64,000 nt of DNA from Flavobacteriales bacterium. Lineage in GTDB: Bacteria; Bacteroidota; Bacteroidia; CAIKAF01. The stretch is taken from NCBI GenBank assembly GCA_025451235.1, contig JANWKT010000020.1:48032-112031 (forward strand), in the 5' to 3' direction. Made by a program: the position numbers and the translations under genes. The first letter of the stretch is position 1, and the number at the start of each line of letters is the position of its first letter. Positions 3,279 to 49,207 of the stretch are shown here, piece after piece. The notes below the pieces were generated by a model, which had not been told where the DNA came from, did no database searches, and worked only from the letters and a program-made list of their open reading frames with translations.

Positions 3279-4961
3279 ATGAAAAAAATCATCCCATTTA
3301 CCGCACTGGTCATTTTTATGTTGAGTCTTTTCTCATGTGCAAGAGAAGTAACGAACACCACAGGGTGGAGCTATAATAGCCATGGTAATGCCAGTATGAA
3401 AAGGTATCGGACATCCGGCAAAACAGCTAAAATGGCTTTTAGAACCATAACATGTCCATCGTTTGGATATACAGCTAGTCGTCAGAAAAAATCGGCCATA
3501 GCTCATGGAGAGATTGAGGGAGTGGTTGATCGAAGAACTATACCAAAAACTGATTCCACTGCTACCAATCCTGAAAATGGAGTGGTCATATCCGAAAATC
3601 CTTTCGAACTTGCCAAGAAGGACCATACTTCCACTTTTTCGATAGACGTTGACCGCGCCTCTTATTCCAATGTAAGAAGAATGATCAATCAAGGTACCAT
3701 GCCATCAGCCAACGACATCAGGCTGGAAGAAATGGTGAACTATTTTGTATACGACTATCCTCAGCCGGTGGATGAGCATCCTTTTTCCATCAATATGGAA
3801 ACAGCGGCTTGCCCATGGACTCCTAACCATCAATTGGTATTGGTGGGTCTGCAAGGGAAAAAATTGCCGGAAACTCAACTCCCTCCTTCTAACCTGGTTT
3901 TTCTCCTCGATGTATCCGGCTCCATGAACACCTATAATAAACTTCCCCTGGTAAAAAAATCCCTCAACCTGTTTATTGGTCAATTAAGAAAGAGCGATAG
4001 GATTTCCATCGTAGTATATGCAGGTGCCGCTGGATTAGTGCTTCCTTCTACACCTGGTAATATGAAAGATACCATCATGAATGCTATCAATGAGCTGGAG
4101 GCTGGTGGTTCTACTGCAGGTGGACAAGGAATCAAATTGGCATATAAGATCGCATCCGAAAACCTGATGCCAAACGGCAATAACCGGGTCATTCTATGTA
4201 CTGATGGTGATTTTAATGTGGGTGTAAGTTCGGATACCGAATTGCAAACATTGATCGAGGGGGAAAGGAATAAGGGCATTTATTTGAGTGTACTGGGTTA
4301 TGGGATGGGAAATTATCAGGATACCAAGCTGGAAATGTTGGCTGATAAAGGAAATGGTAACTATGCCTATATTGATTCGGAAGAGGAGGCAAAAAAAGTA
4401 TTTGTAAAAGAATTTGATGGGACCTTGTTTACTATTGCCAAGGATGTAAAGATCCAGGTAGACTTTAATCCTGATGTAGTGAAAACTTACCGTTTGCTTG
4501 GATATGAGAATAGGATATTACAGGATTGGGAATTTGATGATGATACAAGGGATGCCGGGGAGATCGGGTCAGGTCATACGGTCACGGCTATTTATGAGAT
4601 TGAGTTGTATGATCCATTAAATCCTACTCCTACAACAGATCCGGTGACCAATAAAAAGGGTTCTATTATGACCTTTAAGTTCAGGTATAAACCCATTGAT
4701 CAGGAAAAATCCATTTTGGTGGTAAAAGAACTGGATTATACGAACCAGGCATTTGAAAATGCTTCCAACAATCTACAATTTGCTTCCGCTGTGGCTGCCT
4801 TTGGAATGGTATTGAGGGAATCCAAATACAAAGGAACTGCGGATTTAAATATGGTGCTCAGCCTCGCTCAAAACAGCAAGGGTATGGACAAAGAAGGTTA
4901 CCGGACCGAATTTATCGAATTGGTGAAGTCGAGCAAGTTGCTGGGAACCGCCAGCAAGTAA
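3279..4961 (+). CDS. YfbK-like von Willebrand factor A (vWA) domain lipoprotein
   Basis: Lipoprotein signal (…LSLFSCAR). MIDAS motif DVSGSM. Domain order and length (~560 aa) resemble E. coli YfbK. Confidence 0.8.
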   Translation: MKKIIPFTALVIFMLSLFSCAREVTNTTGWSYNSHGNASMKRYRTSGKTAKMAFRTITCPSFGYTASRQKKSAIAHGEIEGVVDRRTIPKTDSTATNPENGVVISENPFELAKKDHTSTFSIDVDRASYSNVRRMINQGTMPSANDIRLEEMVNYFVYDYPQPVDEHPFSINMETAACPWTPNHQLVLVGLQGKKLPETQLPPSNLVFLLDVSGSMNTYNKLPLVKKSLNLFIGQLRKSDRISIVVYAGAAGLVLPSTPGNMKDTIMNAINELEAGGSTAGGQGIKLAYKIASENLMPNGNNRVILCTDGDFNVGVSSDTELQTLIEGERNKGIYLSVLGYGMGNYQDTKLEMLADKGNGNYAYIDSEEEAKKVFVKEFDGTLFTIAKDVKIQVDFNPDVVKTYRLLGYENRILQDWEFDDDTRDAGEIGSGHTVTAIYEIELYDPLNPTPTTDPVTNKKGSIMTFKFRYKPIDQEKSILVVKELDYTNQAFENASNNLQFASAVAAFGMVLRESKYKGTADLNMVLSLAQNSKGMDKEGYRTEFIELVKSSKLLGTASK

Positions 4962-5024
4962 TCATAACGATTAGTTCATCTTTATTTGTTGGTTCCTGCA
5001 AGGAGGGTACTTATATTTGTTACG

Positions 5025-5504
5025 ATGAAAAGTACTTCCCTAACCATATTCCTCTTGGCCGGTCTATGCACCCATTTATTATCACAAGGTATGGCTCCCT
5101 TTCCACCAACAACCGACATCTCCTATGCCGGGATTAAGGGTACGGTTAGAGATGTTCAATCCCTCGAAACTTTGCCGGGAGCAACAGTTTTCCTAATGCA
5201 AAACGATTCTATCCTTCAAGGAACTTTAACCGACATTGATGGGCATTACGAGTTTACCCGGGTACCCTCCGGAACTTACCAGTTAAAGGTGAAATATATC
5301 TCATATGAGGAGAAAATCATAGAAGTAAAGGTGGATACAAAAAATGGGGCATCCGACCTAATGGTCATGAATATTGAGGAAACACCTGTTTACCCTTGTA
5401 TTTGTGAAGAAAAAATTATTCCTCTTCCCCCTTACTGGTTATCCGGAAACACCTATTCAGGCTGGAAAGCAGAATATATCTTGATTCAAAGCCTGGGATT
5501 TTAA
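5025..5504 (+). CDS. Stand-alone CarboxypepD_reg-like domain protein
   Basis: Signal peptide from the internal Met. TVRDVQSLETLPGATVFL…DIDGHYEF…GTYQLKV is the carboxypeptidase-regulatory-like beta-sandwich that normally sits at the N-terminus of SusC-type TonB-dependent receptors. Confidence 0.55.
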   Translation: MKSTSLTIFLLAGLCTHLLSQGMAPFPPTTDISYAGIKGTVRDVQSLETLPGATVFLMQNDSILQGTLTDIDGHYEFTRVPSGTYQLKVKYISYEEKIIEVKVDTKNGASDLMVMNIEETPVYPCICEEKIIPLPPYWLSGNTYSGWKAEYILIQSLGF

Positions 5505-5614
5505 CACTTTTTTTTATTAGGCCAGGCAACCAAACGAAGGGGGCCGGCGTCTTATTAATAAATGGGCCGATTTCCCCAAGTTTGAGGTTCATTTTAAAAT
5601 CTTGTTTTGGTGAA

Positions 5615-5656
5615 TTAAAAAAGGTCCGGAAGGTAAAATCTCCGGGCCTTTTTATG
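5615..5656. terminator. Bidirectional intrinsic terminator (stem ggtccgga/tccgggcc with one G·U pair, A-run before, T5 after)
   Basis: Read directly. It sits between the convergent + gene ending at 5504 and the minus csbD-like gene ending at 5718. Confidence 0.6.
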
Positions 5657-5717
5657 TTATAGAGTTCTTCCAATGATTCTTAAAAGACAGTTGGTACCTT
5701 TTTTAGAACGATAGCTT

Positions 5718-5924
5718 TCAAGCCAATAGCATAGTGATCACCTCATCGCGTTTTTTGTTCAACCTTTTTATCATTCTTTCAATCAACTCGTTTTCTTTCC
5801 CGGTTTCAAACCTCAGGTCTTCCTGAGTCAATTGGACATATTCTTCTTTCAGTTTTTTTGATTGAGCCTCCCAGTTTCCGAAGATCTTAAAGGGCATTTT
5901 TTTCATGTTTTTATTTGTATACAT
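5718..5924 (-). CDS. CsbD-family general stress protein
   Basis: …GNWEAQSKKLKEEYVQLTQEDL…GKENELIERMIKRL matches the CsbD/YjbJ pattern (GNW..K..L.E.WG.LTDDDL…GK…L.G.IQE). Confidence 0.65.
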   Translation of the reverse strand: MYTNKNMKKMPFKIFGNWEAQSKKLKEEYVQLTQEDLRFETGKENELIERMIKRLNKKRDEVITMLLA

Positions 5925-6293
5925 AGTCGTTTTAAATAATAGAAGAATGAAGGTATCTACATTTACATTTCAACCTGTTACAAAATTTTATAAATAGATT
6001 GCATCATTAACGAATGAAGGTTGATATTCATTTAAAACCTTGAATAACAGTTATTCAGCATTTTTAGTAGAGCCTCGATTGCGTTAACGGCTTAGTTAGC
6101 TGAAATGTCAGTAAAAACAGCATTTACAGGAGCATAATCCACCTCAAACTGGCTTAAAATATAAGGAAATTAACAACACCCTGCTTATAAGTTCGATGGT
6201 TATTGGTGAATGCGCTCTTCGGGTACCATACCTTTATGCTTATTTCAACCAAAAACAATTCTTAATTATTGCCACAGTTCAATACCATTATCT

Positions 6294-7835
6294 ATGGAAA
6301 TGAATAACTGTAAGCCGTTAAGATTTCTGATCGGATCTTGTCTCCTTATAGGAGGGATCCTTTCAGTGTCCGCCCAAACCTTTGTTCCCAAAGCCTCTTA
6401 CCTAGGGCAATGGGCCTTTGCCCCCGGGGTAGCGCATCAACCCAGCCAATCTATTTACCTCATGGGTACCTACCAGTTTGGAGATATTGATCAATTTATT
6501 AAATATGATGTAACCAATAATAGCTGGAGCACCATACCAGGAGTACCTCCTATCAAAAGTGAATTTGGATTTGCTTTTGGGGTGAGCAACAGAATATTTT
6601 TTGGAGGCGGTGTGGACCAACCAGGAACATTCTCCAATGCCACATATGAATTCATTCCTCCCAATATCTTTAACGTAGTAGATAATATTCCAAATGGACC
6701 CGCATCTGCCTTTAATTTCGTTGTTGGTAATTACGCCTATGTAGGTGGAGGTATGGTTACAGGTTTTGTGAATCTGAATAGTATGTTCCGGTTTGATCCT
6801 ACAGGAGCTGCGGGTACCCAATGGTCGGCTGTGAGTTCCTATCCTGGTTCAGGTAAATTAAATTGTAGTGCTGGTTCTCTCAACGGTTTTGGTTATGCAG
6901 GATTAGGACGTTCGAATCCCGGATCTACCGAATACAATGATTTCTGGAGATATGATCCCAATACAGGTGCAGGCGGAACATGGACTGCAATGAGTCCCTT
7001 CCCTGGAATTGCCAGGGAATGTGCCATCCTTACCCCCATTTGTGGAAAGTTGATCTTAATGGGAGGGGTTACCCAAACAGGAATGAACTTTAATGATATA
7101 TGGCAATTTGATCCTGCTGCCGGACCTTCGGGAGCCTGGACCTATCTTGGGACCAATAACGGAGTATATGGACCTCAAAACGGAAGATATGGGCCTGCTT
7201 ATGCTTCCTACGGAGATAGTTTGTTCTTAGGAATGGGGTATGGCGTGGCAGGAGCTAATAATGATTGGAAAATGTTTACATATTGTCCGGTAGTTCCCCT
7301 TCCAATCGAACTGGTGAATTTTAATGTTCAATTGAATCAGGAGTATGGAGTGGATATTTTATGGACAACTGCTTCGGAGATCAATAACCACCATTTTGAG
7401 GTGCTGAGATCAGTAGATGCGATCCACTGGGAGACCATTGAGCAAATAGAAGGTGCAGGCAACTCATCTTCATTGTTGGAGTATCAGGTGATCGACCGAT
7501 TTCCGATGCAAGGAATCAATTATTATAAAATAAAACAGGTGGATTATAATGGAGATTTTACATTTTCTGAAATGGCATCTATTGAAATCCTCGAAAACTT
7601 CCCTGAAGATCCTACGGTTTACCCAAACCCCGTAGAACAAAACCTGGAAGTAATTATTCAATACCTAACAGAAGGCATGTCCTATACTATATTGAATTGC
7701 TATGGTTCAGAAGTATTAAATGGGAAGATCAATGACGGTCAAACCACCATTCCTACCCAATCCCTTGCTCCAGGTATTTATTACCTGCGAATTCGCGATT
7801 CAAAAGAATCTACGTTCAAGATCATCAAGCTTTAG
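6294..7835 (+). CDS. Kelch/beta-propeller-like secreted protein with a conserved ~95-aa LPIELV…YYKIKQVD module and T9SS type-A CTD (paralog 1)
   Basis: Signal peptide from the internal Met. Glycine-rich propeller repeats. C-terminal VYPNPVEQN…GIYYLRIRDSKESTFKIIKL. Confidence 0.75.
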   Translation: MEMNNCKPLRFLIGSCLLIGGILSVSAQTFVPKASYLGQWAFAPGVAHQPSQSIYLMGTYQFGDIDQFIKYDVTNNSWSTIPGVPPIKSEFGFAFGVSNRIFFGGGVDQPGTFSNATYEFIPPNIFNVVDNIPNGPASAFNFVVGNYAYVGGGMVTGFVNLNSMFRFDPTGAAGTQWSAVSSYPGSGKLNCSAGSLNGFGYAGLGRSNPGSTEYNDFWRYDPNTGAGGTWTAMSPFPGIARECAILTPICGKLILMGGVTQTGMNFNDIWQFDPAAGPSGAWTYLGTNNGVYGPQNGRYGPAYASYGDSLFLGMGYGVAGANNDWKMFTYCPVVPLPIELVNFNVQLNQEYGVDILWTTASEINNHHFEVLRSVDAIHWETIEQIEGAGNSSSLLEYQVIDRFPMQGINYYKIKQVDYNGDFTFSEMASIEILENFPEDPTVYPNPVEQNLEVIIQYLTEGMSYTILNCYGSEVLNGKINDGQTTIPTQSLAPGIYYLRIRDSKESTFKIIKL

Positions 7836-7983
7836 CTTTCGCATCCTTCATAATAGCTAGAACCACTTGTCCTTAGCCCAGGGTCCTCTTATTTATCCCT
7901 GATTTATTTGCTGCAGTTATTATTAATCGCTAATTTCAGTTTGATTTTAACAGCACAAAAGTTAAACCCAAATCAATCCGGTT

Positions 7984-9525
7984 ATGATCACTCTTCATAA
8001 AAAAATATTTTATTCAATTTATTTAGTTGGATTTTTCATTTTACTGAATTCAACTTTTGCAGATGCTCAAACTTTTTTGGCTAGAACACCTTATTTGGGT
8101 CAATGGGCATTCGCACCAGGGCTAGCACATTTACCTACTACCTCTATTTATATTCCGGGCACCTACCAGTTTGGAGATGTTGACCAATTTGCCAGATACA
8201 ATGTAACCACAAATTCATGGAGTACAGTGGCAGGTTTACCCGCCATAAAAAGTGAATTTGGTTTTGCTTTTACGGTGGGGAACCGAATGTTTTTTGGAGG
8301 TGGGGTGGATCAGCCCGGTACTTTCTCAAATGTTACCTATGAATTTATTCCTCCTAATATTTTTACCACCATGGATAATATTCCTAATGGCCCAGCATCG
8401 GGATTTAGTTTTACGGTAGGAACCTTTGGATATGTGGGTGGAGGATTGGTGGCTGGATTTGGAAATTTAAATGCTATGTTCAGGTTTAATCCATTAGGTA
8501 TTCCAGGCACGCAATGGTCAACGATGACTGCTTATCCAGGTTTGGGAGATATTAATTGTGGGGCAGCTTCATTGAATGGATATGGATACGTTGGTTTAGG
8601 AAGAGCTAATCCGGGAGCAACGGAGTACAACGATTTTTGGAGATATGATCCACTCTTAGGTGCTGGAGGAACCTGGACAGCTATGGCACCCTTTCCTGGT
8701 GCACCCAGAGAATGTCCGATCATTTCTGCATTATGCGACCGGCTTATTTTAATTGGTGGGGTAGATCAATCGGGGGGTAATTTTAATGATATCTGGGAGT
8801 TTGATCCTACCGCCGGAGCTACCGGTACCTGGACCTTTTTAGGAACCAACAATGCGGTATATGGTCCGCAAAATGGACGTTATGGTCCTGCCGCAGGGGC
8901 CTACGGGGATAGCTTATTTTATGGAATGGGATATGGTGCACTTGGAGTTAACACGGATTGGAACATGTTTACCTATTGCCCAATACCATTGCCTATACAA
9001 CTCCTGAGTTTTGAAGCAAATAAATTAGATGGAGATATTGTAGAATTGAACTGGACCACTGCATCAGAGATCAACAATGATCATTTTGAAATTCAAAGAT
9101 CCATGGATGCAATGAACTGGATCGAAATGGGAAGAGTAAACGGAGCTGGAAATTCTTCTTCGAACATTCATTACCAGCATATTGATTATTCTCCATTTAA
9201 TGAGATCAATTACTACCGTTTAAAACAAGTGGACGTAGACGGGAAATTTGAATATTCCTGGATTATCTCCATTGATATTGATAAAAATAAAAAACCTGAA
9301 ATATTGGCTTACCCCAACCCCTCTTATGATTTTGTGAATATTACCCAAACTATTCAGCCTAGCCCTCTTTCCTATTCTATCTATGATAGCTTTGGAACAA
9401 AGATCTCTTCCGGAACTTTGGGAGAAGAAAAAAACGTATTGAGTACGGATGAGTTGTTACAGGGAATTTATTTTATGCATTTCGATGATAAAAACAATAC
9501 TACTGTGAAGATCATTAAATACTAA
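7984..9525 (+). CDS. Kelch/beta-propeller-like secreted protein with the LPIQLL…YYRLKQVD module and T9SS type-A CTD (paralog 2)
   Basis: Colinear with 6294..7835 at roughly 60–65% identity along the whole length. Ends …GIYFMHFDDKNNTTVKIIKY. Confidence 0.75.
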   Translation: MITLHKKIFYSIYLVGFFILLNSTFADAQTFLARTPYLGQWAFAPGLAHLPTTSIYIPGTYQFGDVDQFARYNVTTNSWSTVAGLPAIKSEFGFAFTVGNRMFFGGGVDQPGTFSNVTYEFIPPNIFTTMDNIPNGPASGFSFTVGTFGYVGGGLVAGFGNLNAMFRFNPLGIPGTQWSTMTAYPGLGDINCGAASLNGYGYVGLGRANPGATEYNDFWRYDPLLGAGGTWTAMAPFPGAPRECPIISALCDRLILIGGVDQSGGNFNDIWEFDPTAGATGTWTFLGTNNAVYGPQNGRYGPAAGAYGDSLFYGMGYGALGVNTDWNMFTYCPIPLPIQLLSFEANKLDGDIVELNWTTASEINNDHFEIQRSMDAMNWIEMGRVNGAGNSSSNIHYQHIDYSPFNEINYYRLKQVDVDGKFEYSWIISIDIDKNKKPEILAYPNPSYDFVNITQTIQPSPLSYSIYDSFGTKISSGTLGEEKNVLSTDELLQGIYFMHFDDKNNTTVKIIKY

Positions 9526-9527
9526 AG

Positions 9528-9562
9528 TAAAAAAACCGGGTTAATTACTCCCGGTTTTTTGT
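9528..9562. terminator. Bidirectional intrinsic terminator (aaccggg…cccggtt, A7 before and T6 after); a second small hairpin lies at 9587-9600
   Basis: Read directly. It lies between convergent genes. Confidence 0.6.
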
Positions 9563-9621
9563 TTGTCGAACCCGAATGATATCGCATCCGCCGAAGCGGA
9601 CACTAAGAACGAATAAGGTTT

Positions 9622-11835
9622 TTAATCCACCACGATATAGATCTGGTTGTTATGAACGAATTGAACGTTTCTGGCCTTGGTTAAATATTCCTTGGCGGTT
9701 TTATCGGTATTCACCAGGTTAAAATACTCATCGCTGGCAAATTTTATTTCTTTTTTCTTCAGATTGGAATTCGTCATTACATCTGCATCGATCATCTGGT
9801 TGTTCTGATAATACATGGCCCTACCATTGGCAATGGTATTATAGTTGACTATATCCATTGCTTTATCTGATTCTGATCCTTCATTCACTTTCATCCGCTT
9901 ATTTCCGGCTTTTGTATCAGAATAATTAGCAGCTCCATTGAGTTGCTGCACCTCTTCACTCTGGGTCATGGATATTTTTCCGTTGTCTTTTTGCAGATCA
10001 TCATATTCTTTCTCCATATTCATCGAACCCTGTCCAAGTGCCCCGTCGTTGAAAATAGTGAACCCGTTTCTGTCAACGTTACTCACTTTTTCATCCTCTA
10101 ATATGAGGTAACTTGTATAAGGAGTAATAATTCCATACCTGCGAGCCAACGTAACAATTTCGTCCTTGATCTCCTCGTTCTCGCCGGTAAGCCTGATCTG
10201 ATCCAACAGATCTCCAACCCTTCTGGATGCCCAAATAGATGGAACAAATTCATTGCTCATGGCTTCCTCTTTCCAGGCTACATCATATTCAAATTTCTGC
10301 ACTATCCCGTTCAGCTTGCCCTCAACAATTAATGTTGAGTTTCCAGGATTACGGAAACGACCACTGATGGTTAATGAGCTTCCATAAAAAATATCCGGAC
10401 AGTTCTTAGGAAAGATTTGATACTCATTAGGAGCATCTGCAAAATATATTTTCACATCCGTAAGTACAGGGGCAGATATCTTCGAGAAGAAATTGGTAAC
10501 GGTAGAACTAATATCATCCCCTTCCGAAACATAAGCCCTGAGGCCTCTTCCATCTGCTGCAATTTTATCCAACAATTTAATATTGAGGTCCTCCCCTATT
10601 CCAAAAGTAAAAATACGATGGCTCTTCGAATTGGCATCTGTTATTTTTTTCATGAGTTTTCCTTCATCGTATTCGCCAATGGTCGGTTTTCCGTCAGTAA
10701 TAAAAATAATATTCGAAGGGCGCAAAGGGTCGACCTTCTCTGTAAATGCCAGCCTGAATGCATCATCCATATTGGTCCCACCCAAGGCTTCTATCTTATC
10801 GATAAAAGCAAACGCTTTTTTCTTGTTGATTTCATCTGCGATCATTCTTTTTCCAAAAAGCTGATAAGCTTCCGTACCAAAAGTGATCACTTCAAACTTA
10901 TCCCCAGGATTTAGGATCTCCACACACTTAGTAAGGGTATTTCGGGCCTGAATGATCTTATCACCTCTCATGCTTCCGCTGATATCCATAATAAATGTCA
11001 CATCCTTGTTCACAATTTTATTCTGCTCAATAAACCCTGGACTAATATCCGCGATAAAAAATCCGTCCTCATTTTGTTCCTTGAACTGGAACATTGACAT
11101 TCCAAGTAAAGTAGAAGAAGTGGAGTAATACAGTTTGAATTGTGAAGGCATCGCATCGTTTCCTAATTCCATGGAAGCCTTGGCTTTGAAGTCGGAAGAA
11201 TGGACCACATCCACCAAATGAGTAGGCGAATACACATTCTTGATCTTTTCATTGGATTTGATATCCACATTCAATACTACCTCATCAATAGGTTTTGAAT
11301 TATACTTCAATGCATTCAATGGATAGGAATATTCGTAAGTACCGTTATCAATTGGCATATGATGTGCAAATACCAGTTTGATCTCTTTGGTTGATTTGGG
11401 CTCAATGGGAAATATCCTCATTCTTAACATCCCCTGATCTGAAAATTCAAGCAAAGCAGGGTCCTTCATCTGGCGAACAATATCTTCATAGACCTGTCTT
11501 GCCTTTAAAGCATCCAACATTTCCGCTTTTACCATTTGCCCATTCATTTCCATTCTAAATTCTTTGATGATAGCATTTTTGGGTAAGGGGAAAAAATAAT
11601 CCCCTTCCATTCGTTGTGAAGTACTGTTCTCGAATGTTTGTTCAACGGTGGTGATGGCTATTGGTCCGTCCATTTGAACGTCTATCCTTAGTTTTTTACA
11701 GTGTAGGGTATAATCCTGCACCCGCTGGGTCTGTATATTGGCCATAGCTGCATTGGTGATGATAAAACCACCCGCGAAACTGAACAGGCAACTGCAGCAG
11801 ATGGCTGCCATTACCAAAAATATTTTTTTGTTCAT
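9622..11835 (-). CDS. Secreted VIT-domain + vWA-domain protein
   Basis: Signal peptide. The N-terminal region resembles a vault/inter-alpha-trypsin (VIT) domain. MIDAS motif DISGSM with downstream T..G and ITDG motifs. Confidence 0.8.
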   Translation of the reverse strand: MNKKIFLVMAAICCSCLFSFAGGFIITNAAMANIQTQRVQDYTLHCKKLRIDVQMDGPIAITTVEQTFENSTSQRMEGDYFFPLPKNAIIKEFRMEMNGQMVKAEMLDALKARQVYEDIVRQMKDPALLEFSDQGMLRMRIFPIEPKSTKEIKLVFAHHMPIDNGTYEYSYPLNALKYNSKPIDEVVLNVDIKSNEKIKNVYSPTHLVDVVHSSDFKAKASMELGNDAMPSQFKLYYSTSSTLLGMSMFQFKEQNEDGFFIADISPGFIEQNKIVNKDVTFIMDISGSMRGDKIIQARNTLTKCVEILNPGDKFEVITFGTEAYQLFGKRMIADEINKKKAFAFIDKIEALGGTNMDDAFRLAFTEKVDPLRPSNIIFITDGKPTIGEYDEGKLMKKITDANSKSHRIFTFGIGEDLNIKLLDKIAADGRGLRAYVSEGDDISSTVTNFFSKISAPVLTDVKIYFADAPNEYQIFPKNCPDIFYGSSLTISGRFRNPGNSTLIVEGKLNGIVQKFEYDVAWKEEAMSNEFVPSIWASRRVGDLLDQIRLTGENEEIKDEIVTLARRYGIITPYTSYLILEDEKVSNVDRNGFTIFNDGALGQGSMNMEKEYDDLQKDNGKISMTQSEEVQQLNGAANYSDTKAGNKRMKVNEGSESDKAMDIVNYNTIANGRAMYYQNNQMIDADVMTNSNLKKKEIKFASDEYFNLVNTDKTAKEYLTKARNVQFVHNNQIYIVVD

Positions 11836-11843
11836 ATTACCTA

Positions 11844-13016
11844 TTATTTAAAGGTATAGTTCTTTTTCTCAGCTACCGACTTTACACTTTCAATCACCGC
11901 CTGATCCAAAGAGTTGGCTTCTCCTTTTTCTTTCATTTTTTCGTCAATAAATGCCTGACGTTGTACGTTGATCAAATTGATCTCATTCTTGATGGTGTCT
12001 CTTTTGGCAGACTGATCTGATACATATTTTACTTTTTGGTCATCATCCATATCCTTCATCGCTTCTGGCAATTCCTCTTTTTTAAGCTTTTTTATGTCCA
12101 CTTTATTTTCTTTTTGGGCATCTACCAGGTCCCAACTACCATTATAGTATCCACTACCCGCTTTGGCTACCGCTCTGTCAGCAATATTGGCTTTAGAATA
12201 GGATTCAGCATTTTTATCCTGGTTGGTTTGATTGGTTGCTGCCAAAGTCCCTTCAGCTCCATAAAATATATAAGTGGAATTCAGTTCATTGTTCAGCCTG
12301 ATCAAGGTTGAATCAAAAGGAGTTTCAATATAAACGGTGGCTTCATTCATATTAATACTTATAAATGATCCATCAGCCAACAAAGCTCCATCTTTCCATC
12401 CGGAATTAGCTCCATCCGATTCGTTGCCACAGTAAATAGTATTGATAATGATCCCTTTTTTAATGGCATCCCTGCAAGCTTTTTGGTAATCTATTGATCC
12501 TTGATTGAAGGGTTCGTTTCCAGCAATATAAACCAGCTTCAGGTCTTCATTCGATTCGGTCCAAGCCAAATTCAAAGTGGCATCCTGAATAACTGCACCG
12601 CAATATTCACTGCCGCCGTTGGTGGATAATTTAAAAAGTTCTTCCGATACCTTGTCAAGATCCGTTGTAAATGGAAGTACCTGTTGAATATAATTGCTTT
12701 GGGAAGATAATCCATCATTTCCATAATGGTACAATGCGATCTCTATGGTTGGTTTTTCGCCATTATATTCAGCTGTGGCCAGTTCATTCACTATTTTCCA
12801 TAATTGCGATTTGGCTTGTTCGATCAGGCCATCCATGCTGCCGCTGGTATCCATTAAAAGTGCTACCTGTATTTTTTGTTTACCATGGACCCATGATGAT
12901 GAAGATCGTTTGATAGCGGTTAACTTATCGGCTGCGGATACGGTTGATCCGGCCAATGCAGAGCTCAAAATACCTATCGATACTAATGCTGTTAATAGAA
13001 TTGCTCGTTTGCTCAT
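11844..13016 (-). CDS. Secreted vWA-domain protein with a charged, coiled-coil-like C-terminus
   Basis: Signal peptide from the internal Met (MSKRAILLTALVSIG…). MIDAS motif DTSGSM. Only 9 bp from the upstream VIT-vWA gene on the same strand. Confidence 0.75.
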   Translation of the reverse strand: MSKRAILLTALVSIGILSSALAGSTVSAADKLTAIKRSSSSWVHGKQKIQVALLMDTSGSMDGLIEQAKSQLWKIVNELATAEYNGEKPTIEIALYHYGNDGLSSQSNYIQQVLPFTTDLDKVSEELFKLSTNGGSEYCGAVIQDATLNLAWTESNEDLKLVYIAGNEPFNQGSIDYQKACRDAIKKGIIINTIYCGNESDGANSGWKDGALLADGSFISINMNEATVYIETPFDSTLIRLNNELNSTYIFYGAEGTLAATNQTNQDKNAESYSKANIADRAVAKAGSGYYNGSWDLVDAQKENKVDIKKLKKEELPEAMKDMDDDQKVKYVSDQSAKRDTIKNEINLINVQRQAFIDEKMKEKGEANSLDQAVIESVKSVAEKKNYTFK

Positions 13017-13135
13017 AATATTTAATTTTTTGTTTTTGAGGAACTCACCACTCATCGTGATTGAATTCATTTTTACCTATTTTTATGTATTGATTACACC
13101 CCAAAAAAAATTAGGTTCATTTTTTCTGAGTTTTT

Positions 13136-13275: not shown

Positions 13276-13710
13276 GTGAACAGAGCTATCATATATATAG
13301 GTATCCTTCTTACATTTTTAATTACCGGTTGCGGTGCATCAAAAGAACAAAAGCAGAACAGGGAACTGGAAAAACTAGCGCTGGAGGTAATGAACATACA
13401 CGACCGCAGTATGCCCGATCATGGAAAATTGTTCAAGTTAAAAAAGAGTTTGCTCGCCATCTATGAAAGCGTTTCAGACACTCTGGTAAAAAAAGAGATA
13501 TCCTCAACCATTGAAGATATCGATCACGCTGATAGGGGCATGATGGACTGGATGCATCATTATACTGCACCGGCAGATTATCTTCCCTTCGAAGAAAAGA
13601 AAGCCTATTATCTTGAACAGAAAAAAATAATTGAAGATGTAGAAAAGTTGACCACCCAAACCATAGAGAAAGCAAAACAAATCATTGATGCATATCCCTC
13701 AGTAGAATGA
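13276..13710 (+). CDS. Hypothetical lipoprotein with a Met/His-rich patch (DHADRGMMDWMHHY); GTG start
   Basis: Lipobox LITGCG. Its stop overlaps the start of the downstream SCO1 gene by 4 bp. Confidence 0.55.
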   Translation: MNRAIIYIGILLTFLITGCGASKEQKQNRELEKLALEVMNIHDRSMPDHGKLFKLKKSLLAIYESVSDTLVKKEISSTIEDIDHADRGMMDWMHHYTAPADYLPFEEKKAYYLEQKKIIEDVEKLTTQTIEKAKQIIDAYPSVE

Positions 13711-14366
13711 TCCAAAGAATCGCTATTATATTATTTTTACCGATCCTCATGATGAGTTGTGGTAAAAAAAATGTCCAGGAAGCCCATCCAAAAACAAAAA
13801 GTTTACCTTATCTGGGCGAACCAGGTATCACCTCTCATGAGGAAAACGGGAAACTGGTGGCAGATACTATTTATCCTACAATTCCTGAATTTTCGTTTAC
13901 GAACCAGGATGGAAAAATGGTGAACCTAAAGACTTTCGATGGAGGTATCTACGTAGCTGATTTCTTTTTTACGACCTGCCCCACGATTTGCCCAAAAATG
14001 AAAGCGGAACTATTAAGGGTTTATGATGCTTTTAAAAATGAGCCCAGGGTAAAAATATTAAGTCATACCATTGATCCGGAACACGATAGTGTACCCGTGC
14101 TTCGTGAATATGCCAGCCGTTTGCAGGTGAGTAGTGATAAATGGAATTTTGTAACAGGTGACAAGGATTCTATTTATACCATCGCCGAATATTATTTATG
14201 TACTGCCGAAGAAGCTCCGAATGAACCTGGTGGTTATATTCACAGTGGCTCGTTGATATTGATCGATCATGAAAAACATATTCGTGGGATGTACAATGGA
14301 ACCAAACCCGAAGAAGTGGATCAGTTGATAAAAGACATTCCATTATTGTTAGGTGAAATCAAATAG
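13707..14366 (+). CDS. SCO1/SenC family copper chaperone (thioredoxin-like)
   Basis: Lipoprotein signal. The CxxxC motif FFFTTCPTICP is the SCO1 signature. Confidence 0.85.
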   Translation: MIQRIAIILFLPILMMSCGKKNVQEAHPKTKSLPYLGEPGITSHEENGKLVADTIYPTIPEFSFTNQDGKMVNLKTFDGGIYVADFFFTTCPTICPKMKAELLRVYDAFKNEPRVKILSHTIDPEHDSVPVLREYASRLQVSSDKWNFVTGDKDSIYTIAEYYLCTAEEAPNEPGGYIHSGSLILIDHEKHIRGMYNGTKPEEVDQLIKDIPLLLGEIK

Positions 14367-14769
14367 ATCCTATATCATCATTATTGTGGTTTGCCTGCTA
14401 CTTATTGGGCTGGTATTGATCGTTACCCAATCCAAAAAAAAGGATTATCTCACCAGAGGAAAAATGAGTTACGAAAAACATTGTGCCAATTGTCATGGGA
14501 TAAAAGGGGAAGGTTTACAATTATTGATCCCACCATTAACTGATCCCACCTGGACCCAAAACGATTCCATTGCATGCATTATTAAATATGGAATGGAGGG
14601 AAAGATCATGGTCAATGGAAAAGAATATAATAACCGAATGACCGGAAACGCGGTTATTGAAAATGACGAGATTGCGGATTTGGTTAGTTATATCCGAAAA
14701 GAATTTACCCAAATGCCTAAACGAATGACCCTAAAAGTAGCCGGAGAACAAATTTTAAAGTGCAAATAA
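14353..14769 (+). CDS. Membrane-anchored class I c-type cytochrome
   Basis: N-terminal TM anchor. CANCHG haem-binding CxxCH motif. Overlaps the SCO1 stop. Confidence 0.8.
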   Translation: MKSNRSYIIIIVVCLLLIGLVLIVTQSKKKDYLTRGKMSYEKHCANCHGIKGEGLQLLIPPLTDPTWTQNDSIACIIKYGMEGKIMVNGKEYNNRMTGNAVIENDEIADLVSYIRKEFTQMPKRMTLKVAGEQILKCK

Positions 14770-15423: not shown

Positions 15424-16590
15424 ATGAAAAATATACCCGGAGCTCTTAACCTGTCCATCAAAAATTTTTTGTTACTGATTTGTTGTATGCTGAACTCATC
15501 CAGCTCCTTTTCTCAGTTATGCAATGGATCGGGTAACGTAGTGGTTTTTTCTAATTATGATGGTTCTGGTAACACAGCCGCAACTAGATTGAACATCAAT
15601 GTGGATGTAAATATTGCCAACTTAAAAATAGGTATCGCCTCTTATGAAAGAGTTACTGTAAATATTGCAGGTGCATTTGTTGGAAACGTAACCGCTGTCC
15701 GTTGGGCCGGATATGGAGCCACCAATAACCATTGCACTTCTACAGCGGCTACTGTAATTACTGGTGTACCGGCCGGTATTATTACTTATGTAACGAGTCC
15801 TCCGGCTACAGTCAGTGATCCTCTGGGTAATGCTAATATTATTGGAGGCTATTCATGCCCAATGGGAAATGGCGGGGGTTCGGCAAGTATGTATCAAATC
15901 GTGAATTATTTTTTATCGGCATTCGGTCCTGGCAGCACCTTGCGCTCTTCTTTTTCACAATATGGTTGTTGGGCTGGTGCTACAAAAAACTTATCTGCAG
16001 GTGCTTCTGGCAATTGTTGCCCCGCCACTCCGCTGCCTATAGAGCTGGTTTCGTTTACAGAGTCATGCGATCAGAATCGCAGAACACTTAATTGGACCAC
16101 TTCATCAGAAATCAACAATGATTATTTTACGGTGGAAAGATCTGTTGATGCTGTTAACTATGAACCTATGGCTGAAATAAGAGGTGCTGGCAATTCAAAT
16201 ACCCTGATGCATTATGAATGGGTGGATGAATCTCCCCTGCCAGGGATCAATTATTATCGCTTAAGTCAGACTGACAATGATGGAACCACTGAATATTTTG
16301 AACCTATTTCCGCTGGCCCTGAATGTGGTCCAAAGTCATCAGATCTTACCATCATACATAATCCCACTGAATCTGTGCTTAGCTTTCAGGTAAATGGATC
16401 CATGAATGATGAGGTACTCAATATTCATATTTACGACTTAAAAGGAGGTTCTGTATTGAATAAAAAACTTATTTCCATGGAAGGAACCAACATTTTCATG
16501 ATTGATATCGAATCACTCGAAAGAGGTGTCTACTTTTTAAGAGTTGAAAGCGAAACTTATTCGGTACAGAAAAAATTTATTAAGATCTAA
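15424..16590 (+). CDS. Secreted protein with the LPIELV…YYRLSQTD module and T9SS type-A CTD
   Basis: Signal peptide. Shares the ~95-aa module with the genes at 6294 and 7984. Ends …GVYFLRVESETYSVQKKFIKI. Confidence 0.7.
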   Translation: MKNIPGALNLSIKNFLLLICCMLNSSSSFSQLCNGSGNVVVFSNYDGSGNTAATRLNINVDVNIANLKIGIASYERVTVNIAGAFVGNVTAVRWAGYGATNNHCTSTAATVITGVPAGIITYVTSPPATVSDPLGNANIIGGYSCPMGNGGGSASMYQIVNYFLSAFGPGSTLRSSFSQYGCWAGATKNLSAGASGNCCPATPLPIELVSFTESCDQNRRTLNWTTSSEINNDYFTVERSVDAVNYEPMAEIRGAGNSNTLMHYEWVDESPLPGINYYRLSQTDNDGTTEYFEPISAGPECGPKSSDLTIIHNPTESVLSFQVNGSMNDEVLNIHIYDLKGGSVLNKKLISMEGTNIFMIDIESLERGVYFLRVESETYSVQKKFIKI

Positions 16591-35146: not shown

Positions 35147-36577
35147 TTAAATGTTGATCTTCTTTTCCAGCTCATCTACATAAGCTCTGAATCGCTTGTC
35201 AGTTTCCATTAGATTATTTACTGTTTTGCAGGCATGCAATACAGTAGCATGGTCTTTACCTCCGCAATGAGCTCCAATAGTAGCTAAAGAAGATTTGGTG
35301 TAGTTTTTGGCAAAATACATAGCAATTTGTCTTGCCTGAACCACTTCACGTTTACGTGTTTTGGATTTCATGAGTTCAATAGGTAGCTCAAAATAATCGC
35401 AAACCACTTTTTGAATGTAATCGATCGATACTTCACGGGCATTGTTCTTCACAAATTTATCGATCATCTTTTTAGCAAGATCAAGGGTAACCTCTTTCTT
35501 GTTAAGGGATGATTGGGCGATCAGGGAGATCAAAGCTCCTTCGAGTTCCCGGATATTGGTTGTGATACTATATGCCAGGTATTCGATTACATCCTTAGGT
35601 AATTCTATACCATCATTGTAAATTTTCTTTTCAAGGATGGCAATTCTTGTTTCCAACTCTGGAATTTGTAAATCAGCAGAAAGTCCCCATTTAAATCTGG
35701 AAAGAAGACGTTGTTCCATACCCTGCAATTCAACTGGTGGTTTGTCGGAACTCAAAATAAGTTGTTTGCCATTTTGGTGCAGGTGATTGAATATATGGAA
35801 GAACACATCCTGTGTTTTTTCTTTTCCGGCTAAATACTGTACATCATCTATAATTAAAACATCCACTAACTGGTAGAAATTCACAAAGTCGTTATTGCTC
35901 CCGCTCTTTACAGCATCAATGAACTGGTTAATGAATTTTTCAGAAGGTACGTAAAGTACCGTTTTGTTAGGGAAGTTTTTCTTGATCTCAATTCCAATTG
36001 CATGAAGCAGGTGGGTTTTACCCAAGCCAGTGCTTCCATAAACCATTAAAGGATTAAACGATGTTCCGCCTGGATTTTTAGCTACAGCATAGCCTGCAGA
36101 TCTGGCCAAACGATTACAATCGCCTTCAACGAAATTTTCAAAGGTATAATTAGGATTAAGGTTAGAGTCAATATTAACTTTTTTAAGCCCGGGAATAATA
36201 AATGGATTTTTTATTGATTTGTTTCCACCCAAATCAATAGGCATGTTTACTGTAGGATTTACTAATGCTTTTTTGTCTGTCGTTGGTAGTTTTACCGAGT
36301 AAGATTGTTTAGAATTTGTATGATTTTCCATAATAATACTGTATTCCAATCTGCCCTCTGGCCCCAGCTCTTTTTTCACTACTTTTTTTAATAAAGTAAT
36401 GTAGTGTTCTTCCAGCCATTCGTAAAAAAATTGGGAAGGAACTTGGATCGTCAGAACACTATCAATAAGCTTGAGCGGCTGTATTGGCTCAAACCAGGTT
36501 TTGTAGCTTTGGGGGCTTACGTTATCCCGGATAATGTTCAGACAGTTCTCCCATAAATCATTGTGGTTTTTAGCCAT
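35147..36577 (-). CDS. dnaA: Chromosomal replication initiator protein DnaA
   Basis: MAKNHNDLWENCL… N-terminus. Walker A YGSTGLGKTHLLHAIG. C-terminal DNA-binding helix …QIAMYFAKNYT…. Confidence 0.9.
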   Translation of the reverse strand: MAKNHNDLWENCLNIIRDNVSPQSYKTWFEPIQPLKLIDSVLTIQVPSQFFYEWLEEHYITLLKKVVKKELGPEGRLEYSIIMENHTNSKQSYSVKLPTTDKKALVNPTVNMPIDLGGNKSIKNPFIIPGLKKVNIDSNLNPNYTFENFVEGDCNRLARSAGYAVAKNPGGTSFNPLMVYGSTGLGKTHLLHAIGIEIKKNFPNKTVLYVPSEKFINQFIDAVKSGSNNDFVNFYQLVDVLIIDDVQYLAGKEKTQDVFFHIFNHLHQNGKQLILSSDKPPVELQGMEQRLLSRFKWGLSADLQIPELETRIAILEKKIYNDGIELPKDVIEYLAYSITTNIRELEGALISLIAQSSLNKKEVTLDLAKKMIDKFVKNNAREVSIDYIQKVVCDYFELPIELMKSKTRKREVVQARQIAMYFAKNYTKSSLATIGAHCGGKDHATVLHACKTVNNLMETDKRFRAYVDELEKKINI

Positions 36578-36628
36578 AATTTCACCTCCTTTTTTTTGAT
36601 CTGAAACATGTTTTCGCAACTCTGTTCG

Positions 36629-46697: not shown

Positions 46698-47345
46698 ATG
46701 AAAAGATACAGGAAGTTGATCTATATATTAATAGGAATTGTCATTGTGCCTTTCCTTTTTGTATTTGCATCAAATGCCATTATAAAAAAAACCACCCGCG
46801 ATAAAATATATAGTAATATTGAACATCTGCCAGTGAATGATATTGGTTTGGTGTTGGGTACCAGTAAATATACCCATGGAGGCCTTAATCAATATTATAG
46901 TTACCGGATGGAAGCAGCGGCTGAGTTATTTTTTGCCGGAAAGATCAAACATATCATTGTAAGTGGAGACAACCATGTAAATGGTTATAATGAACCGGAG
47001 CAAATGAAAGCTTCTTTGGTAAAGTTGGGTGTGCCTGCCGAAAAGATCACTTGTGATTATGCCGGATTGAGAACATTTGATTCGGTGGTAAGGCTAAAAA
47101 AGATCTTTCTCACGAACAAAGCCACCATCATTTCCCAAAAATTTCATCTGGAACGAGCATTGTTTATCGCCCAACATTATCATATTGATGCGGTGGGCTA
47201 TTGTTCAAAAGATGTAGGTGCCCAATATAATAAGACCACAAAATTCCGAGAACTCCTGGCACGTTCAAAAGCCGTGCTTGACTTATACGTTCTCGGCACC
47301 AAACCCAAACATTTAGGTACAGAAATTAAAATCAATATCCCATGA
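46698..47345 (+). CDS. SanA/YdcF (DUF218) family protein
   Basis: N-terminal TM helix. …HIIVSGDNHVNGYNEPEQMK…YAGLRTFDSVVR fits the DUF218 pattern. Confidence 0.7.
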   Translation: MKRYRKLIYILIGIVIVPFLFVFASNAIIKKTTRDKIYSNIEHLPVNDIGLVLGTSKYTHGGLNQYYSYRMEAAAELFFAGKIKHIIVSGDNHVNGYNEPEQMKASLVKLGVPAEKITCDYAGLRTFDSVVRLKKIFLTNKATIISQKFHLERALFIAQHYHIDAVGYCSKDVGAQYNKTTKFRELLARSKAVLDLYVLGTKPKHLGTEIKINIP

Positions 47346-49207
47346 ACAAACTATTTACCATCGCGTTATTTGCCATCACCATCACTACGACGGCCCAGGC
47401 TCCTCATAAACTACATTTTGCAGTTGCACCAGCAGGTTCGGCTAGTTTCAATGCGGTAGATGAAGGCCCCTGGTATGTAAATATCGAAAACCACGAGGCA
47501 GGGCAACAACTGAATAGCCAGGAAAAAATACGGATGGGTGAACTAAAAGCAAATACCAATTATCTCTTTCCGCATAAAAACTCAATGGAAATAAAAGCAG
47601 ATCGTGCTTTACCTGATCCGGTGATCAACAATTCCTTTATTGCCAATGCGGCTTCAGGAAGTGTGCCTATGGATAATTATATGGCCAATTCGGATAGCGG
47701 ATATATCACCTCGGTATCCAACACCCTTATACAGGTATACAGAGAAAATGGGGTACTCGTAAAATCCAGGACCTTACAGAGTTTTGCAACTTCATTGGGA
47801 TTGAATGGAATTAATAACGGCAAGTTCGATCCTAAAGTGATCTACGACCCGCAGGCGGATAGATTCATCGCTGTTATACTGAATGGTTTCAATTCTACGT
47901 ATAGCAAGATCATTGTGGCCTTCTCTCAAACCAACAGGCCCGATAGTACCTGGAATTTCTATACGCTTTCAGGAAACCCTTTAAGTGATACCACCTGGTT
48001 TGATTACCCGGCTGTTTCAATTACTGATGACGAATTATTCATTACCGGTAATCAATTAAAAGAAGGACAATCGTGGTTACTTGGGTTCAAGCAATCGATC
48101 ATCTGGCAAATTGATAAAGAGGATGGTTATAATGGAGATACATTGGATATGGACCTATGGTACAATATCAATTCAGGAGGTCGACCGATCAGGAATCTTC
48201 ATCCGGTAAAAGGCGGAGAAGACATTTATGGTCCTAAACAATATTTTTTGAGTAATAGAAATATATCCACATTAAATGATACGATTTTTGTTCTTAACAT
48301 TAATGATACCATTGGCGCACCAGGCACTCAGCTAAATGTAGATGTCCTCCAGGCGGATATCCCCTATGGCTTTCCTCCGAATGCATATCAGAAAGTAGCC
48401 GGTCAATACCTCGCTACCAATGACGGGAGGGTACTAGGTGGGTTTTACGAAGAAGGAAGGATCTACTTTGCCTCTAACTCTGTTGATACCTCCAATGGAC
48501 GTGCTGGAATATTCTTTGGGGAGATCACCGGAGTGGATACCGCCAACTATAATATCACCGGAACCATGATCTCGAATGATACCTTGGATTTCGGCTATCC
48601 TAACCTGTCATGGTGCGGTTCTTATGGAACACAAAGTAACCTCTATCTATCCTTTCTGCATTCAGGTCCCAACAGGTTCCCGGGTATATCCACTGTTTTG
48701 TATTCCAACAATGAATGGTCGAACCTAAAAACAGTAAGAGAGGGAACGGCCAATCTGCTGGCATTATCCGATTCGGTGGAAAGATGGGGAGATTATTTTG
48801 GGTCGCAACCTAAATACAATAATGATGGAGTGGTTTGGATCTGTGGCACCTTCGGCAATACAGGGAATGCCTATCGGGCATTCATTGCAGAATTATATAA
48901 TCCAATGGGAATTGAAATAGGAATAGAAGAAGAGAAACCAGCTTCCGCCAACACAAATAATAAAATATATCCAAATCCGGCGATGGATCTCACTAATGTT
49001 GAAATTGAATTGTTGCAGGATCGAAATGTAGAAATTTCCCTATATGATATCAACGGAAAAATGATCGCTATCCTTTATAAAGGGAAATTATATGCAGGAG
49101 TGAACAAAGTTCAATTCAATATCGGTCATTTATCAAATGGTAGTTATATATTGCATGCAATATCGGGGAACGAATCTATTTTAAGAAAGACCATTGTTAA
49201 AAACTGA
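47342..49207 (+). CDS. Secreted hypothetical protein with T9SS type-A CTD
   Basis: Signal peptide. C-terminal KIYPNPAMDLTNVEIELLQ…ISLYDINGKMI…GSYILHAISGNESILRKTIVKN. Confidence 0.7.
   Translation: MNKLFTIALFAITITTTAQAPHKLHFAVAPAGSASFNAVDEGPWYVNIENHEAGQQLNSQEKIRMGELKANTNYLFPHKNSMEIKADRALPDPVINNSFIANAASGSVPMDNYMANSDSGYITSVSNTLIQVYRENGVLVKSRTLQSFATSLGLNGINNGKFDPKVIYDPQADRFIAVILNGFNSTYSKIIVAFSQTNRPDSTWNFYTLSGNPLSDTTWFDYPAVSITDDELFITGNQLKEGQSWLLGFKQSIIWQIDKEDGYNGDTLDMDLWYNINSGGRPIRNLHPVKGGEDIYGPKQYFLSNRNISTLNDTIFVLNINDTIGAPGTQLNVDVLQADIPYGFPPNAYQKVAGQYLATNDGRVLGGFYEEGRIYFASNSVDTSNGRAGIFFGEITGVDTANYNITGTMISNDTLDFGYPNLSWCGSYGTQSNLYLSFLHSGPNRFPGISTVLYSNNEWSNLKTVREGTANLLALSDSVERWGDYFGSQPKYNNDGVVWICGTFGNTGNAYRAFIAELYNPMGIEIGIEEEKPASANTNNKIYPNPAMDLTNVEIELLQDRNVEISLYDINGKMIAILYKGKLYAGVNKVQFNIGHLSNGSYILHAISGNESILRKTIVKN

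Follow-up and report, generated by a model that had tools for sequence, protein, structure and literature searches.

The window analysed here, i.e., a stretch of 64,000 nt from a Flavobacteriales bacterium, carries two adjacent genes (A and B) that look like T9SS cargo. Each places a module of about 100 residues between its main domain and a type-A CTD, and the same module stands before the CTD of gene C further downstream. A sequence-only reading had recognised the module without being able to name a family for it. We thus ask what this module is and what it may do in front of the CTD.

Architecture of the module-bearing genes

Genes A and B both lie on the forward strand and encode proteins of 513 aa. 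The open reading frame of gene A spans 6210-7835 with its likely start at the ATG at 6294 (6294..7835), which agrees with the database protein P0023; gene B (7984..9525) corresponds to the database entry P0017 with 100% identity. Putative signal peptides cover aa 1-27 of gene A (6294..6374) and aa 1-28 of gene B (7984..8067), where the cleavage sites, placed by eye, separate ...SVSA from QTF and ...FADA from QTF, respectively. Also judged by eye, the N-terminus of gene A combines a K/R n-region, a hydrophobic core and small residues at -3/-1, and the full-length model of gene B (mean pLDDT 88.5) shows a predicted N-terminal helix at residues 2-21. A six-bladed Kelch beta-propeller follows (gene A: aa 28-333, 6375..7292; gene B: aa 29-333, 8068..8982), then the pre-CTD module (aa 335-434 in both, at 7296..7595 and 8986..9285) and the CTD including the stop codon (aa 442-513, 7617..7835; aa 443-513, 9310..9525).

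Gene C (15424..16590, + strand; P0186) encodes a 388-aa T9SS cargo protein, as seen from its open reading frame and its matches to PF18962, TIGR04183 and the module HMM. It combines a Cys-rich passenger region without family match (aa 31-202) with the module (aa 203-302, 16030-16329) and a type-A CTD (16360-16590). Its N-terminal part is unrelated to gene B (best BLASTP E-value 0.69) while its module and CTD are related to those of gene B (E 4e-34), which bears out the claim of a module shared with an otherwise unrelated gene. The motif quoted for the module in the sequence-only reading is found in all three translations, and an HMM built from the three copies gives, in the six-frame translation of the window, these three only (E 1e-52 to 2e-56).

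The assignment of the CTDs to type A also holds. PF18962 and TIGR04183 (cut-offs 27 and 23 bits) score 37.7 and 38.1 bits for gene A, 41.3 and 37.0 bits for gene B, and 45.2 and 32.6 bits for gene C. All three matches are complete (profile positions 1-4 through 71-75) and end 1-3 residues before the stop. We infer that genes A and B encode Sec-exported, T9SS-secreted cargo with a putative CTD cleavage site. The window holds CTD genes of both types, five of type A and two of type B, and the module is absent from two of the five type-A genes. No core T9SS gene was found among the 25 window ORFs scanned (of 49 with at least 150 aa). A scan of positions 5400-9800 for sigma-70 promoters and terminators is uninformative because it yielded fewer sites than shuffled sequence.

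Age of the tandem duplication

Genes A and B had been described as tandem, colinear paralogs with about 60-65% identity. Colinearity is evident from an end-to-end alignment with only 2 gaps (74% positives, E = 0.0); the similarity is thus real, and the identity has to be corrected to 59%. It is unevenly distributed, i.e., 72% in the propeller, 50% in the module and 27% in the CTD. We also ran the suggested dN/dS comparison. The fraction of non-synonymous differences (pN) is 0.17 in the propeller, 0.35 in the module and 0.52 in the CTD, while pS is saturated throughout (0.73-0.82), so that a proper dN/dS ratio cannot be estimated.

On the nucleotide level, third codon positions are 40% identical, the longest exact run is 18 nt and no 90-nt window exceeds 80% identity. 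This low identity rules out recent gene conversion as well as an assembly artefact. In a neighbour-joining tree, the A and B sequences fall into separate clades with orthologues in each, and an orthologous A/B pair is again found in tandem on a JGI contig. The duplication is old and under purifying selection.

The Kelch propellers

What had been noted as a glycine-rich propeller is identified as a six-bladed Kelch propeller by Pfam, the structure model and Foldseek alike. Both genes exceed the cut-offs of Kelch_1 (20.1 bits; gene A 30.3, gene B 36.3) and of Kelch_3 (22 bits; gene A 31.2, gene B 31.3). In the predicted structure of gene B, the 24 strands of the propeller form 6 groups of 4 each. 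Its Foldseek matches are Kelch domains, namely those of NS1-BP, KLHL12, Keap1 and LZTR1, with E-values down to 2.8e-16 and target-normalised TM-scores of 0.77-0.84. These proteins, as well as the bacterial mutarotase NanM/YjhT, likewise have six blades of four strands each, and the Kelch_1, Kelch_3 and Kelch_4 models exceed their cut-offs for the A/B propellers. On the other hand, sequence identity to the known propellers is only 15-20%, a BTB/BACK partner is missing, and the A/B propellers are T9SS cargo.

A function as N-acetylneuraminate mutarotase (NanM/YjhT) is not supported by the respective models, which score far below their cut-offs (NF010730: 27.6 vs. 416 bits; TIGR03547: 21 vs. 256; PF24996: 28 vs. 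45), and the JGI label 'mutarotase' that some distant relatives carry is unsupported for genes A and B. The six-bladed propeller is presumably a binding module, i.e., it would have a ligand-binding role. Close relatives are rare: we found 17 proteins with at least 43% propeller identity among 5.8 billion sequences, and no relative turned up when the GTDB species representatives were scanned with full-length gene B. In nine Kelch proteins that are more distantly related and about 400 aa long, the CTD directly follows the propeller, without the module. The Kelch paralogs as such are ordinary lineage-specific proteins with a predicted surface location.

Fold and family status of the pre-CTD module

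According to the structure models, the module is an independent domain of about 100 residues. Its stand-alone model reaches a pLDDT of 92.7, and in the full-length model of gene B the pLDDT drops to 71 at aa 331-340 and to 69 at aa 431-440, i.e., in the linkers that flank it. The predicted fold is a seven-strand beta-sandwich of the FN3 type (strands A-B-E / C-C'-F-G), which confirms the expected Ig/FN3-like fold; for gene A, the same is suggested by the match of the module HMM and the homology to the modelled gene B module.

The module is nevertheless without a named family in the databases screened, just as the sequence-only reading had left it. None of the three window copies matches any Pfam model at E ≤ 10. 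Likewise, Pfam and NCBIfam provide no module model when searched with full proteins, isolated modules, proteins with 3-9 copies or 64 family members, and the precomputed Pfam matches of a newer release have none that is common to module-bearing proteins. The module lies outside the TIGR04183 and PF18962 models, and the CTD behind it does not differ from other type-A CTDs. A literature text search that covered the motif as well as T9SS pre-CTD, FN3 or Ig-like domains found no description of the module. One candidate from the precomputed Pfam annotations, PF26628, was discarded. It is DUF8202, an N-terminal passenger domain, and not the module: in P0065, DUF8202 aligns to residues 3-99 while the module is found at 223-318, and the module has no match in a nearby DUF8202 gene of 218 aa. 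The 'long CTD' class of Prevotella refers to a longer CTD, not to the pre-CTD module.

Among the closest known systems is FN3 (PF00041), represented by Ihog Fn1 (2ic2/2ibg) and the FN3-like linkers that occur in glycoside hydrolases and pectate lyases of bacteria. It is quite possible, if somewhat short of an even chance, that the module is just a divergent subfamily of ordinary FN3, which PROSITE PS50853, SMART, Gene3D 2.60.40.10 or SUPERFAMILY may already label as such. Sequence and model can be read in its favour, since two classic FN3 landmarks are retained, namely the Trp of strand B and a tyrosine-corner-like YY-R-L in strand F. However, PF00041 fails at E ≤ 10 on single modules, on 9-copy proteins and on the 64 members scanned, as do all other Pfam models. 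Comparing the family profile with the human 10Fn3 sequence by hhalign gave a probability of 0.65%. Searching the PDB sequences with a single module and with the family profile returned chance-level matches only (Tse15 with E 0.03, 4lks with E 0.14) and no FN3 chain. That is, sequence models miss the module, its identity to FN3 structures is 5-17%, and it is set apart from FN3 by invariant motifs that it does not share and by its strict placement immediately ahead of the T9SS CTD. The module represents a family of known fold that is uncatalogued in the Pfam and NCBIfam copies screened.

Abundance, position and conservation of the module

We identified 117,513 cluster representatives (clusters defined at 50% identity) with the module at E ≤ 1e-3, of which 85,273 remain at E ≤ 1e-10 and 4.8% of the matches reach E ≤ 1e-30. 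Together with the observation that the best 80 genome loci are all from Bacteroidota, this agrees with its description as a recurring Bacteroidota module. With at least 85,000 clusters at E ≤ 1e-10, it ranks among the most frequent domains that environmental Bacteroidota have in their T9SS cargo. The Pfam and NCBIfam copies screened have no model for it, and therefore tens of thousands of proteins are only labelled 'T9SS type A sorting domain-containing' or 'hypothetical'. Both the annotation of T9SS cargo and the calling of its domain boundaries would gain from a family model.

The position of the module is strict. Within the 80 genome loci, we counted 87 module ORFs whose 3' stop codon is covered by the fetched sequence, and 78 of them have a CTD match behind the module, connected by a linker with a median of 7 aa (5th-95th percentile 4-13). 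Among the nine ORFs without a CTD match, seven carry a tail of 80-96 aa. Overall, the module precedes the CTD by about 7 residues in no less than 90% of cases. Similarly, 92% of 272 database proteins end 60-110 aa past their last module. The passengers in front are unrelated to each other and comprise Laminin_G_3, DUF8202, Ice_binding, MAM, CUB, pentraxin, SBBP, beta-helix and GDSL domains. The module also forms tandem arrays of up to 9-12 copies, which resembles the use of a stalk; P0137, for instance, combines a GDSL lipase with 9 modules and a CTD. A special conservation of the CTD-adjacent copy within such arrays was rejected, since this copy is the most canonical one in 9/32 arrays compared to 7.9 expected.

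Among the CTD-adjacent copies sampled, conservation reaches 70% or more at 41 of the 99 positions, although this is overstated because the samples were selected by similarity. Conserved polar motifs are WTTASEINN, ERSxD, GAGNS and YYRLKQxDxDG, where many of the internal array copies retain the residues of QxDxDG only weakly. Even with propellers that are only 24% identical, the modules still share 42-51% of their residues. This degree of conservation exceeds by far what a passive spacer would require. A counterexample is P0030, a close Kelch orthologue with a strongly diverged module (16 bits), in which propeller and CTD are kept.

Possible roles of the module

Taking these observations together, we consider it probable that the locus encodes old tandem paralogs, i.e., T9SS-secreted Kelch propellers, in which an FN3-like module acts as stalk or insulator before the CTD. 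The role as stalk or spacer is the most likely one by analogy with the gingipains. For RgpB, an IgSF-CTD tandem with flexible linker has been described and the IgSF domain was proposed as spacer/insulator (PMC4804311). Like the module, the IgSF domains of the gingipains RgpB and Kgp and of PPAD are beta-sandwiches of about 85-100 residues between the functional domain and the type-A CTD, and in the gingipains a short flexible linker, within which the CTD gets cleaved, connects the IgSF domain with the CTD (PMC4804311). The resemblance is one of arrangement, i.e., we found neither a sequence nor a closest-fold relationship between the module and the IgSF domains of RgpB, Kgp and PPAD. In such a role, the module would keep the folding of the passenger domain apart from the CTD and present a short linker to the signal peptidase/sortase. 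After CTD removal, it would become the C-terminal, surface-proximal domain that holds the passenger off the outer membrane.

The gingipain IgSF may also contribute to processing (PMC4804311). A more active role of the module would be that of one half of a bipartite C-terminal cassette, which is read by a T9SS post-translocation component (a PorU/PorZ-type complex, PorV, or a surface receptor) and sets CTD processing, glycan/LPS attachment, or surface retention rather than release. The strict juxtaposition to the type-A CTD (linker median 7 aa, 4-13) and the unusually tight conservation, which includes polar residues that are likely exposed, argue for such a cassette, as does the selection on protein rather than DNA (pS 0.82 in the module). 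Placement and conservation make the module at least a testable candidate for CTD processing or surface retention. We still regard the cassette as unlikely. The module is optional for export because distant Kelch relatives have a CTD and no module, and the two module-free type-A CTD genes of the window point in the same direction. Furthermore, CTDs with and without module have similar PF18962 scores, internal array copies are located far from the CTD without the CTD-adjacent copy being the most canonical, and the module of P0030 drifted while its propeller and CTD stayed.

A related and rather doubtful idea is that the conserved module surface (SEINN / GAGNS / YYRLKQxDxDG) is read by the attachment machinery or a surface glycan after CTD removal. 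If true, module recognition would decide between surface retention and release of cargo in environmental Bacteroidota. We know of no determinant for this sorting outside Porphyromonas.

Least probable among these readings is a binding function of the module itself (for carbohydrate or surface glycan in a CBM-like manner, or for Ca2+), which would add adhesion or rigidity to the passenger: the CBM32-type chain 4lks among the PDB matches and the QxDxDG hairpin with its E/N/S-rich motifs, which we take to resemble DxDxDG-type Ca2+ sites, are set against fold matches to FN3 rather than to jelly-roll or discoidin, passengers too diverse for one shared substrate, and the weak retention of QxDxDG in internal array copies. 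In bacterial adhesins, stalks of tandem beta-sandwiches often gain stiffness from Ca2+. The galactose-binding discoidin model PF22633 (F5_F8_type_C_2), whose hits speak for binding as well, scores 30.4 bits (cut-off 27.8) inside one module of P0145 and matches 3/64 members at E ≤ 0.1. It was rejected, since these matches are partial (profile positions 27-77 of 91), the three window copies have no Pfam match at all, and the predicted fold is that of FN3.

Domain layout of the module-bearing genes

Genes A, B and C are of ordinary, known kinds, i.e., T9SS type-A cargo, with Kelch propellers in A and B. Gene A (ORF 6210-7835, + strand) has its probable start at the ATG at 6294, which yields 513 aa and equals the length of its database entry P0023. 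Gene B (7984-9525, +, 513 aa) lies 148 bp away on the same strand in the ORF list. BLASTP aligns the two over 502 residues with two gaps (59% identity, 74% positives, E = 0). According to Pfam and NCBIfam models, Kelch repeats span about aa 50-290 of both proteins (Kelch_1: 30-36 bits vs. a cut-off of 20.1; Kelch_3: 31 vs. 22), and a complete C-terminal sorting domain (CTD) covers aa 442-513 (PF18962: 38-41 bits vs. 27; TIGR04183: 37-38 vs. 23). The stretch without any such model, aa 335-434, holds the module.

Gene C (15424-16590, +, 388 aa) carries module and CTD behind a Cys-rich N-terminal region. Module and CTD are homologous to those of gene B (E 4e-34); the N-terminal region is unrelated to the Kelch propeller (E 0.69) and matches no Pfam or NCBIfam family. 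Its passenger part (aa 31-202, window 15514-16029, +) is rich in Cys as well as in glycine and serine. Searched against all six reading frames of the window, an HMM built from the module copies of A, B and C hits nothing but these copies. A CTD HMM detects five type-A CTD genes there, 2/5 without the module, namely 873-2318 (-, PF18962 38 bits) and 47342-49207 (+, 50 bits), whose passenger regions show no further Pfam domain.

The full-length AlphaFold model of gene B (mean pLDDT 88.5) shows an N-terminal helix, the putative signal peptide (residues 2-21), 24 strands in six groups of four (29-331), a seven-strand domain (339-432) and the CTD (441-512), with confidence falling at both linkers. 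According to Foldseek, the propeller resembles the six-bladed Kelch domains of NS1-BP, KLHL12, Keap1 and LZTR1 (E as low as 2.8e-16, target-normalised TM 0.77-0.84). JGI labels distant relatives as mutarotases; for A and B this label is unsupported, since the NanM/YjhT models score far under their cut-offs.

A large sequence family of known fold

The sequence-only reading had described the module as recurring but nameless, with an Ig/FN3-like fold expected, and this description holds: the module forms a very large sequence family that is new relative to Pfam and NCBIfam, and its FN3-like fold is a known one. No model of either database matches it at E <= 10, and none covers it even where a protein repeats it three to nine times in tandem, or in any of the 64 members of module alignment A2. 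Precomputed hits from a newer Pfam release contain nothing common to the module-bearing proteins. The sole recurrent extra family, PF26628 (DUF8202), is distinct from the module, being a passenger domain at the N-terminus. By sequence, FN3 kinship is undetectable (hhalign against 10Fn3: 0.65% probability), and profile searches against PDB sequences return noise only. Text searches of the literature found no paper describing the module. Its chief value is for annotation.

A profile of 10 sequences, run exhaustively with HMMER over 1.84 billion representatives of clusters at 50% identity, yields 117,513 proteins at E <= 1e-3, 85,273 at E <= 1e-10 and 5,634 at E <= 1e-30, with up to about 20 matched stretches per protein. 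Scanning GTDB species genomes for two conserved peptide patterns yields at least 593 confirmed module loci. The best 80 of these are all from Bacteroidota (80/80), i.e., from Flavobacteriales MAGs (including Crocinitomicaceae, Vicingaceae and Cryomorphaceae), Cytophagales, Chitinophagales, Saprospiraceae, Sphingobacteriales and a few Bacteroidales MAGs.

Position and conservation of the module

The architectural position is already known, namely that of a pre-CTD Ig-like spacer. In 92% of 272 database proteins, 60-110 residues separate the end of the last module from the C-terminus. An independent genome sample holds 87 module-bearing ORFs whose 3' stop codon falls within the fetched locus. 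In 78 of them the CTD HMM finds a match, separated from the module by a linker of median 7 residues (5th-95th percentile 4-13). Seven of the nine ORFs without a match carry a tail of 80-96 residues, probably a CTD that has diverged beyond the reach of the small HMM used.

The passengers ahead of the module are very diverse and comprise Kelch, Laminin_G_3, DUF8202, Ice_binding, MAM, CUB, pentraxin, SBBP, beta-helix and GDSL lipase domains. Repeats of the module within one protein also occur; the database protein P0137, e.g., consists of a GDSL lipase, nine modules and a CTD. At one genome locus (L081, 1342-2873; GCA_038142565.1, JAYQKF010000013.1), a 218-aa DUF8202 gene is followed after 2 nt by the gene of P0088, a protein with a weak DUF8202 match, module and CTD; a frameshift or sequencing error seems to have split a single cargo gene into these two.

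The module is optional. In nine more distant Kelch proteins of ~400 aa, the CTD directly follows the propeller. P0030 (497 aa, on a Logan contig of 72.8 kb), a close Kelch orthologue with a propeller 69% identical to that of gene B, has kept propeller and CTD with a drifted module (16 bits, 22-29% identity). Its tree neighbours still show about 50% module identity, which looks like relaxed constraint in one lineage.

Across the sampled copies next to a CTD, conservation reaches 70% or more at 41/99 positions, among them the polar motifs WTTASEINN, ERSxD, GAGNS and YYRLKQxDxDG. Module identity is 42-51% where propeller identity is 24%. These values overstate the effect, since similarity guided the choice of samples and the family as a whole spans a wider range. 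The constraint acts at the protein and not the DNA level. Such conservation does not fit a purely passive spacer.

Role of the module

The best-supported reading is that of a stalk or insulator domain. The module is an autonomous unit between flexible linkers, occurs singly or in arrays on any kind of passenger, and is dispensable for some cargo. If the CTD is cut within the ~7-residue linker, as in Porphyromonas, the module would become the mature C-terminal, surface-proximal domain. Its placement mirrors the IgSF domain ahead of the CTD in RgpB, Kgp and PPAD. A study of the gingipain-type IgSF-CTD demonstrated a flexible linker and proposed the IgSF domain as a spacer/insulator; its authors further suggested that CTD processing is influenced by motifs of both Ig-like domains (PMC4804311).

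The conservation, even though overstated, leaves room for more specific roles. An action in a post-translocation attachment or retention step draws on this room and is unlikely. That the module is itself a sorting or retention determinant we consider rather unlikely; within 32 arrays, the CTD-adjacent copy scores best in 9 vs. 7.9 expected by chance, i.e., this copy is nothing special. An intrinsic binding or Ca2+ site, for which the same room and a faint PF22633/CBM32-like similarity speak along with the QxDxDG hairpin that we take to be suggestive of such a site, is improbable.

Age of the tandem pair

The tandem duplication of A and B is old and unremarkable. Nei-Gojobori counts by region give pS/pN values of 0.73/0.17 for the propeller, 0.82/0.35 for the module and 0.70/0.52 for the CTD. 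The dN/dS estimate proposed for the paralogs in the sequence-only reading comes to about 0.07-0.09, which is indicative only, because synonymous sites are saturated; purifying selection on the propeller is clear. We see no sign of recent gene conversion between A and B (third-position identity 40%, longest identical run 18 nt, best 90-nt window 80% identical). In a neighbour-joining tree of the propeller region, both genes fall into separate clades, each with orthologues, and the orthologous pair P0022 and P0019 is also in tandem on a JGI contig, again downstream of a YfbK-type VWA gene. The close Kelch family is small, with 17 proteins at >=43% identity among 5.8 billion sequences for a propeller-only query.

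Genomic neighbourhood

The Kelch pair is flanked by VWA-domain genes, i.e., a vWF_A/VWA/YfbK_C gene (3279-4961, +) followed by a small CarboxypepD_reg ORF (4986-5504, +) on one side, and a VIT+VWA gene (9622-11835, -) and a weak VWA gene (11844-13070, -) on the other. On the JGI contig, which stems from another metagenome, a CarboxypepD_reg+VWA+YfbK_C gene lies just upstream of the orthologous pair, and the arrangement may represent conserved synteny.

Two adjacent genes, 52701-54431 (-, 33.2 bits) and 54513-56213 (-, 34.8 bits, with a choice-of-anchor L domain of 246 bits), score just under the TIGR04131 cut-off of 35 and are marginal type-B CTD candidates. Alongside the type-A CTD genes, they suggest that the genome uses both CTD classes. 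The window also holds the gene of the chromosomal replication initiator DnaA (35147-36619, -; TIGR00362 532 bits vs. 344) and thus adjoins a probable replication origin; the cumulative GC skew shows a steep drop from about 36 to 40 kb. Finally, a small cluster whose genes overlap at their start and stop codons (13276-14769, +) sits between gene C and the VWA genes. It comprises a lipoprotein-like ORF, an SCO1/SenC copper chaperone and a cytochrome c, a content that suggests a function in cytochrome oxidase assembly.
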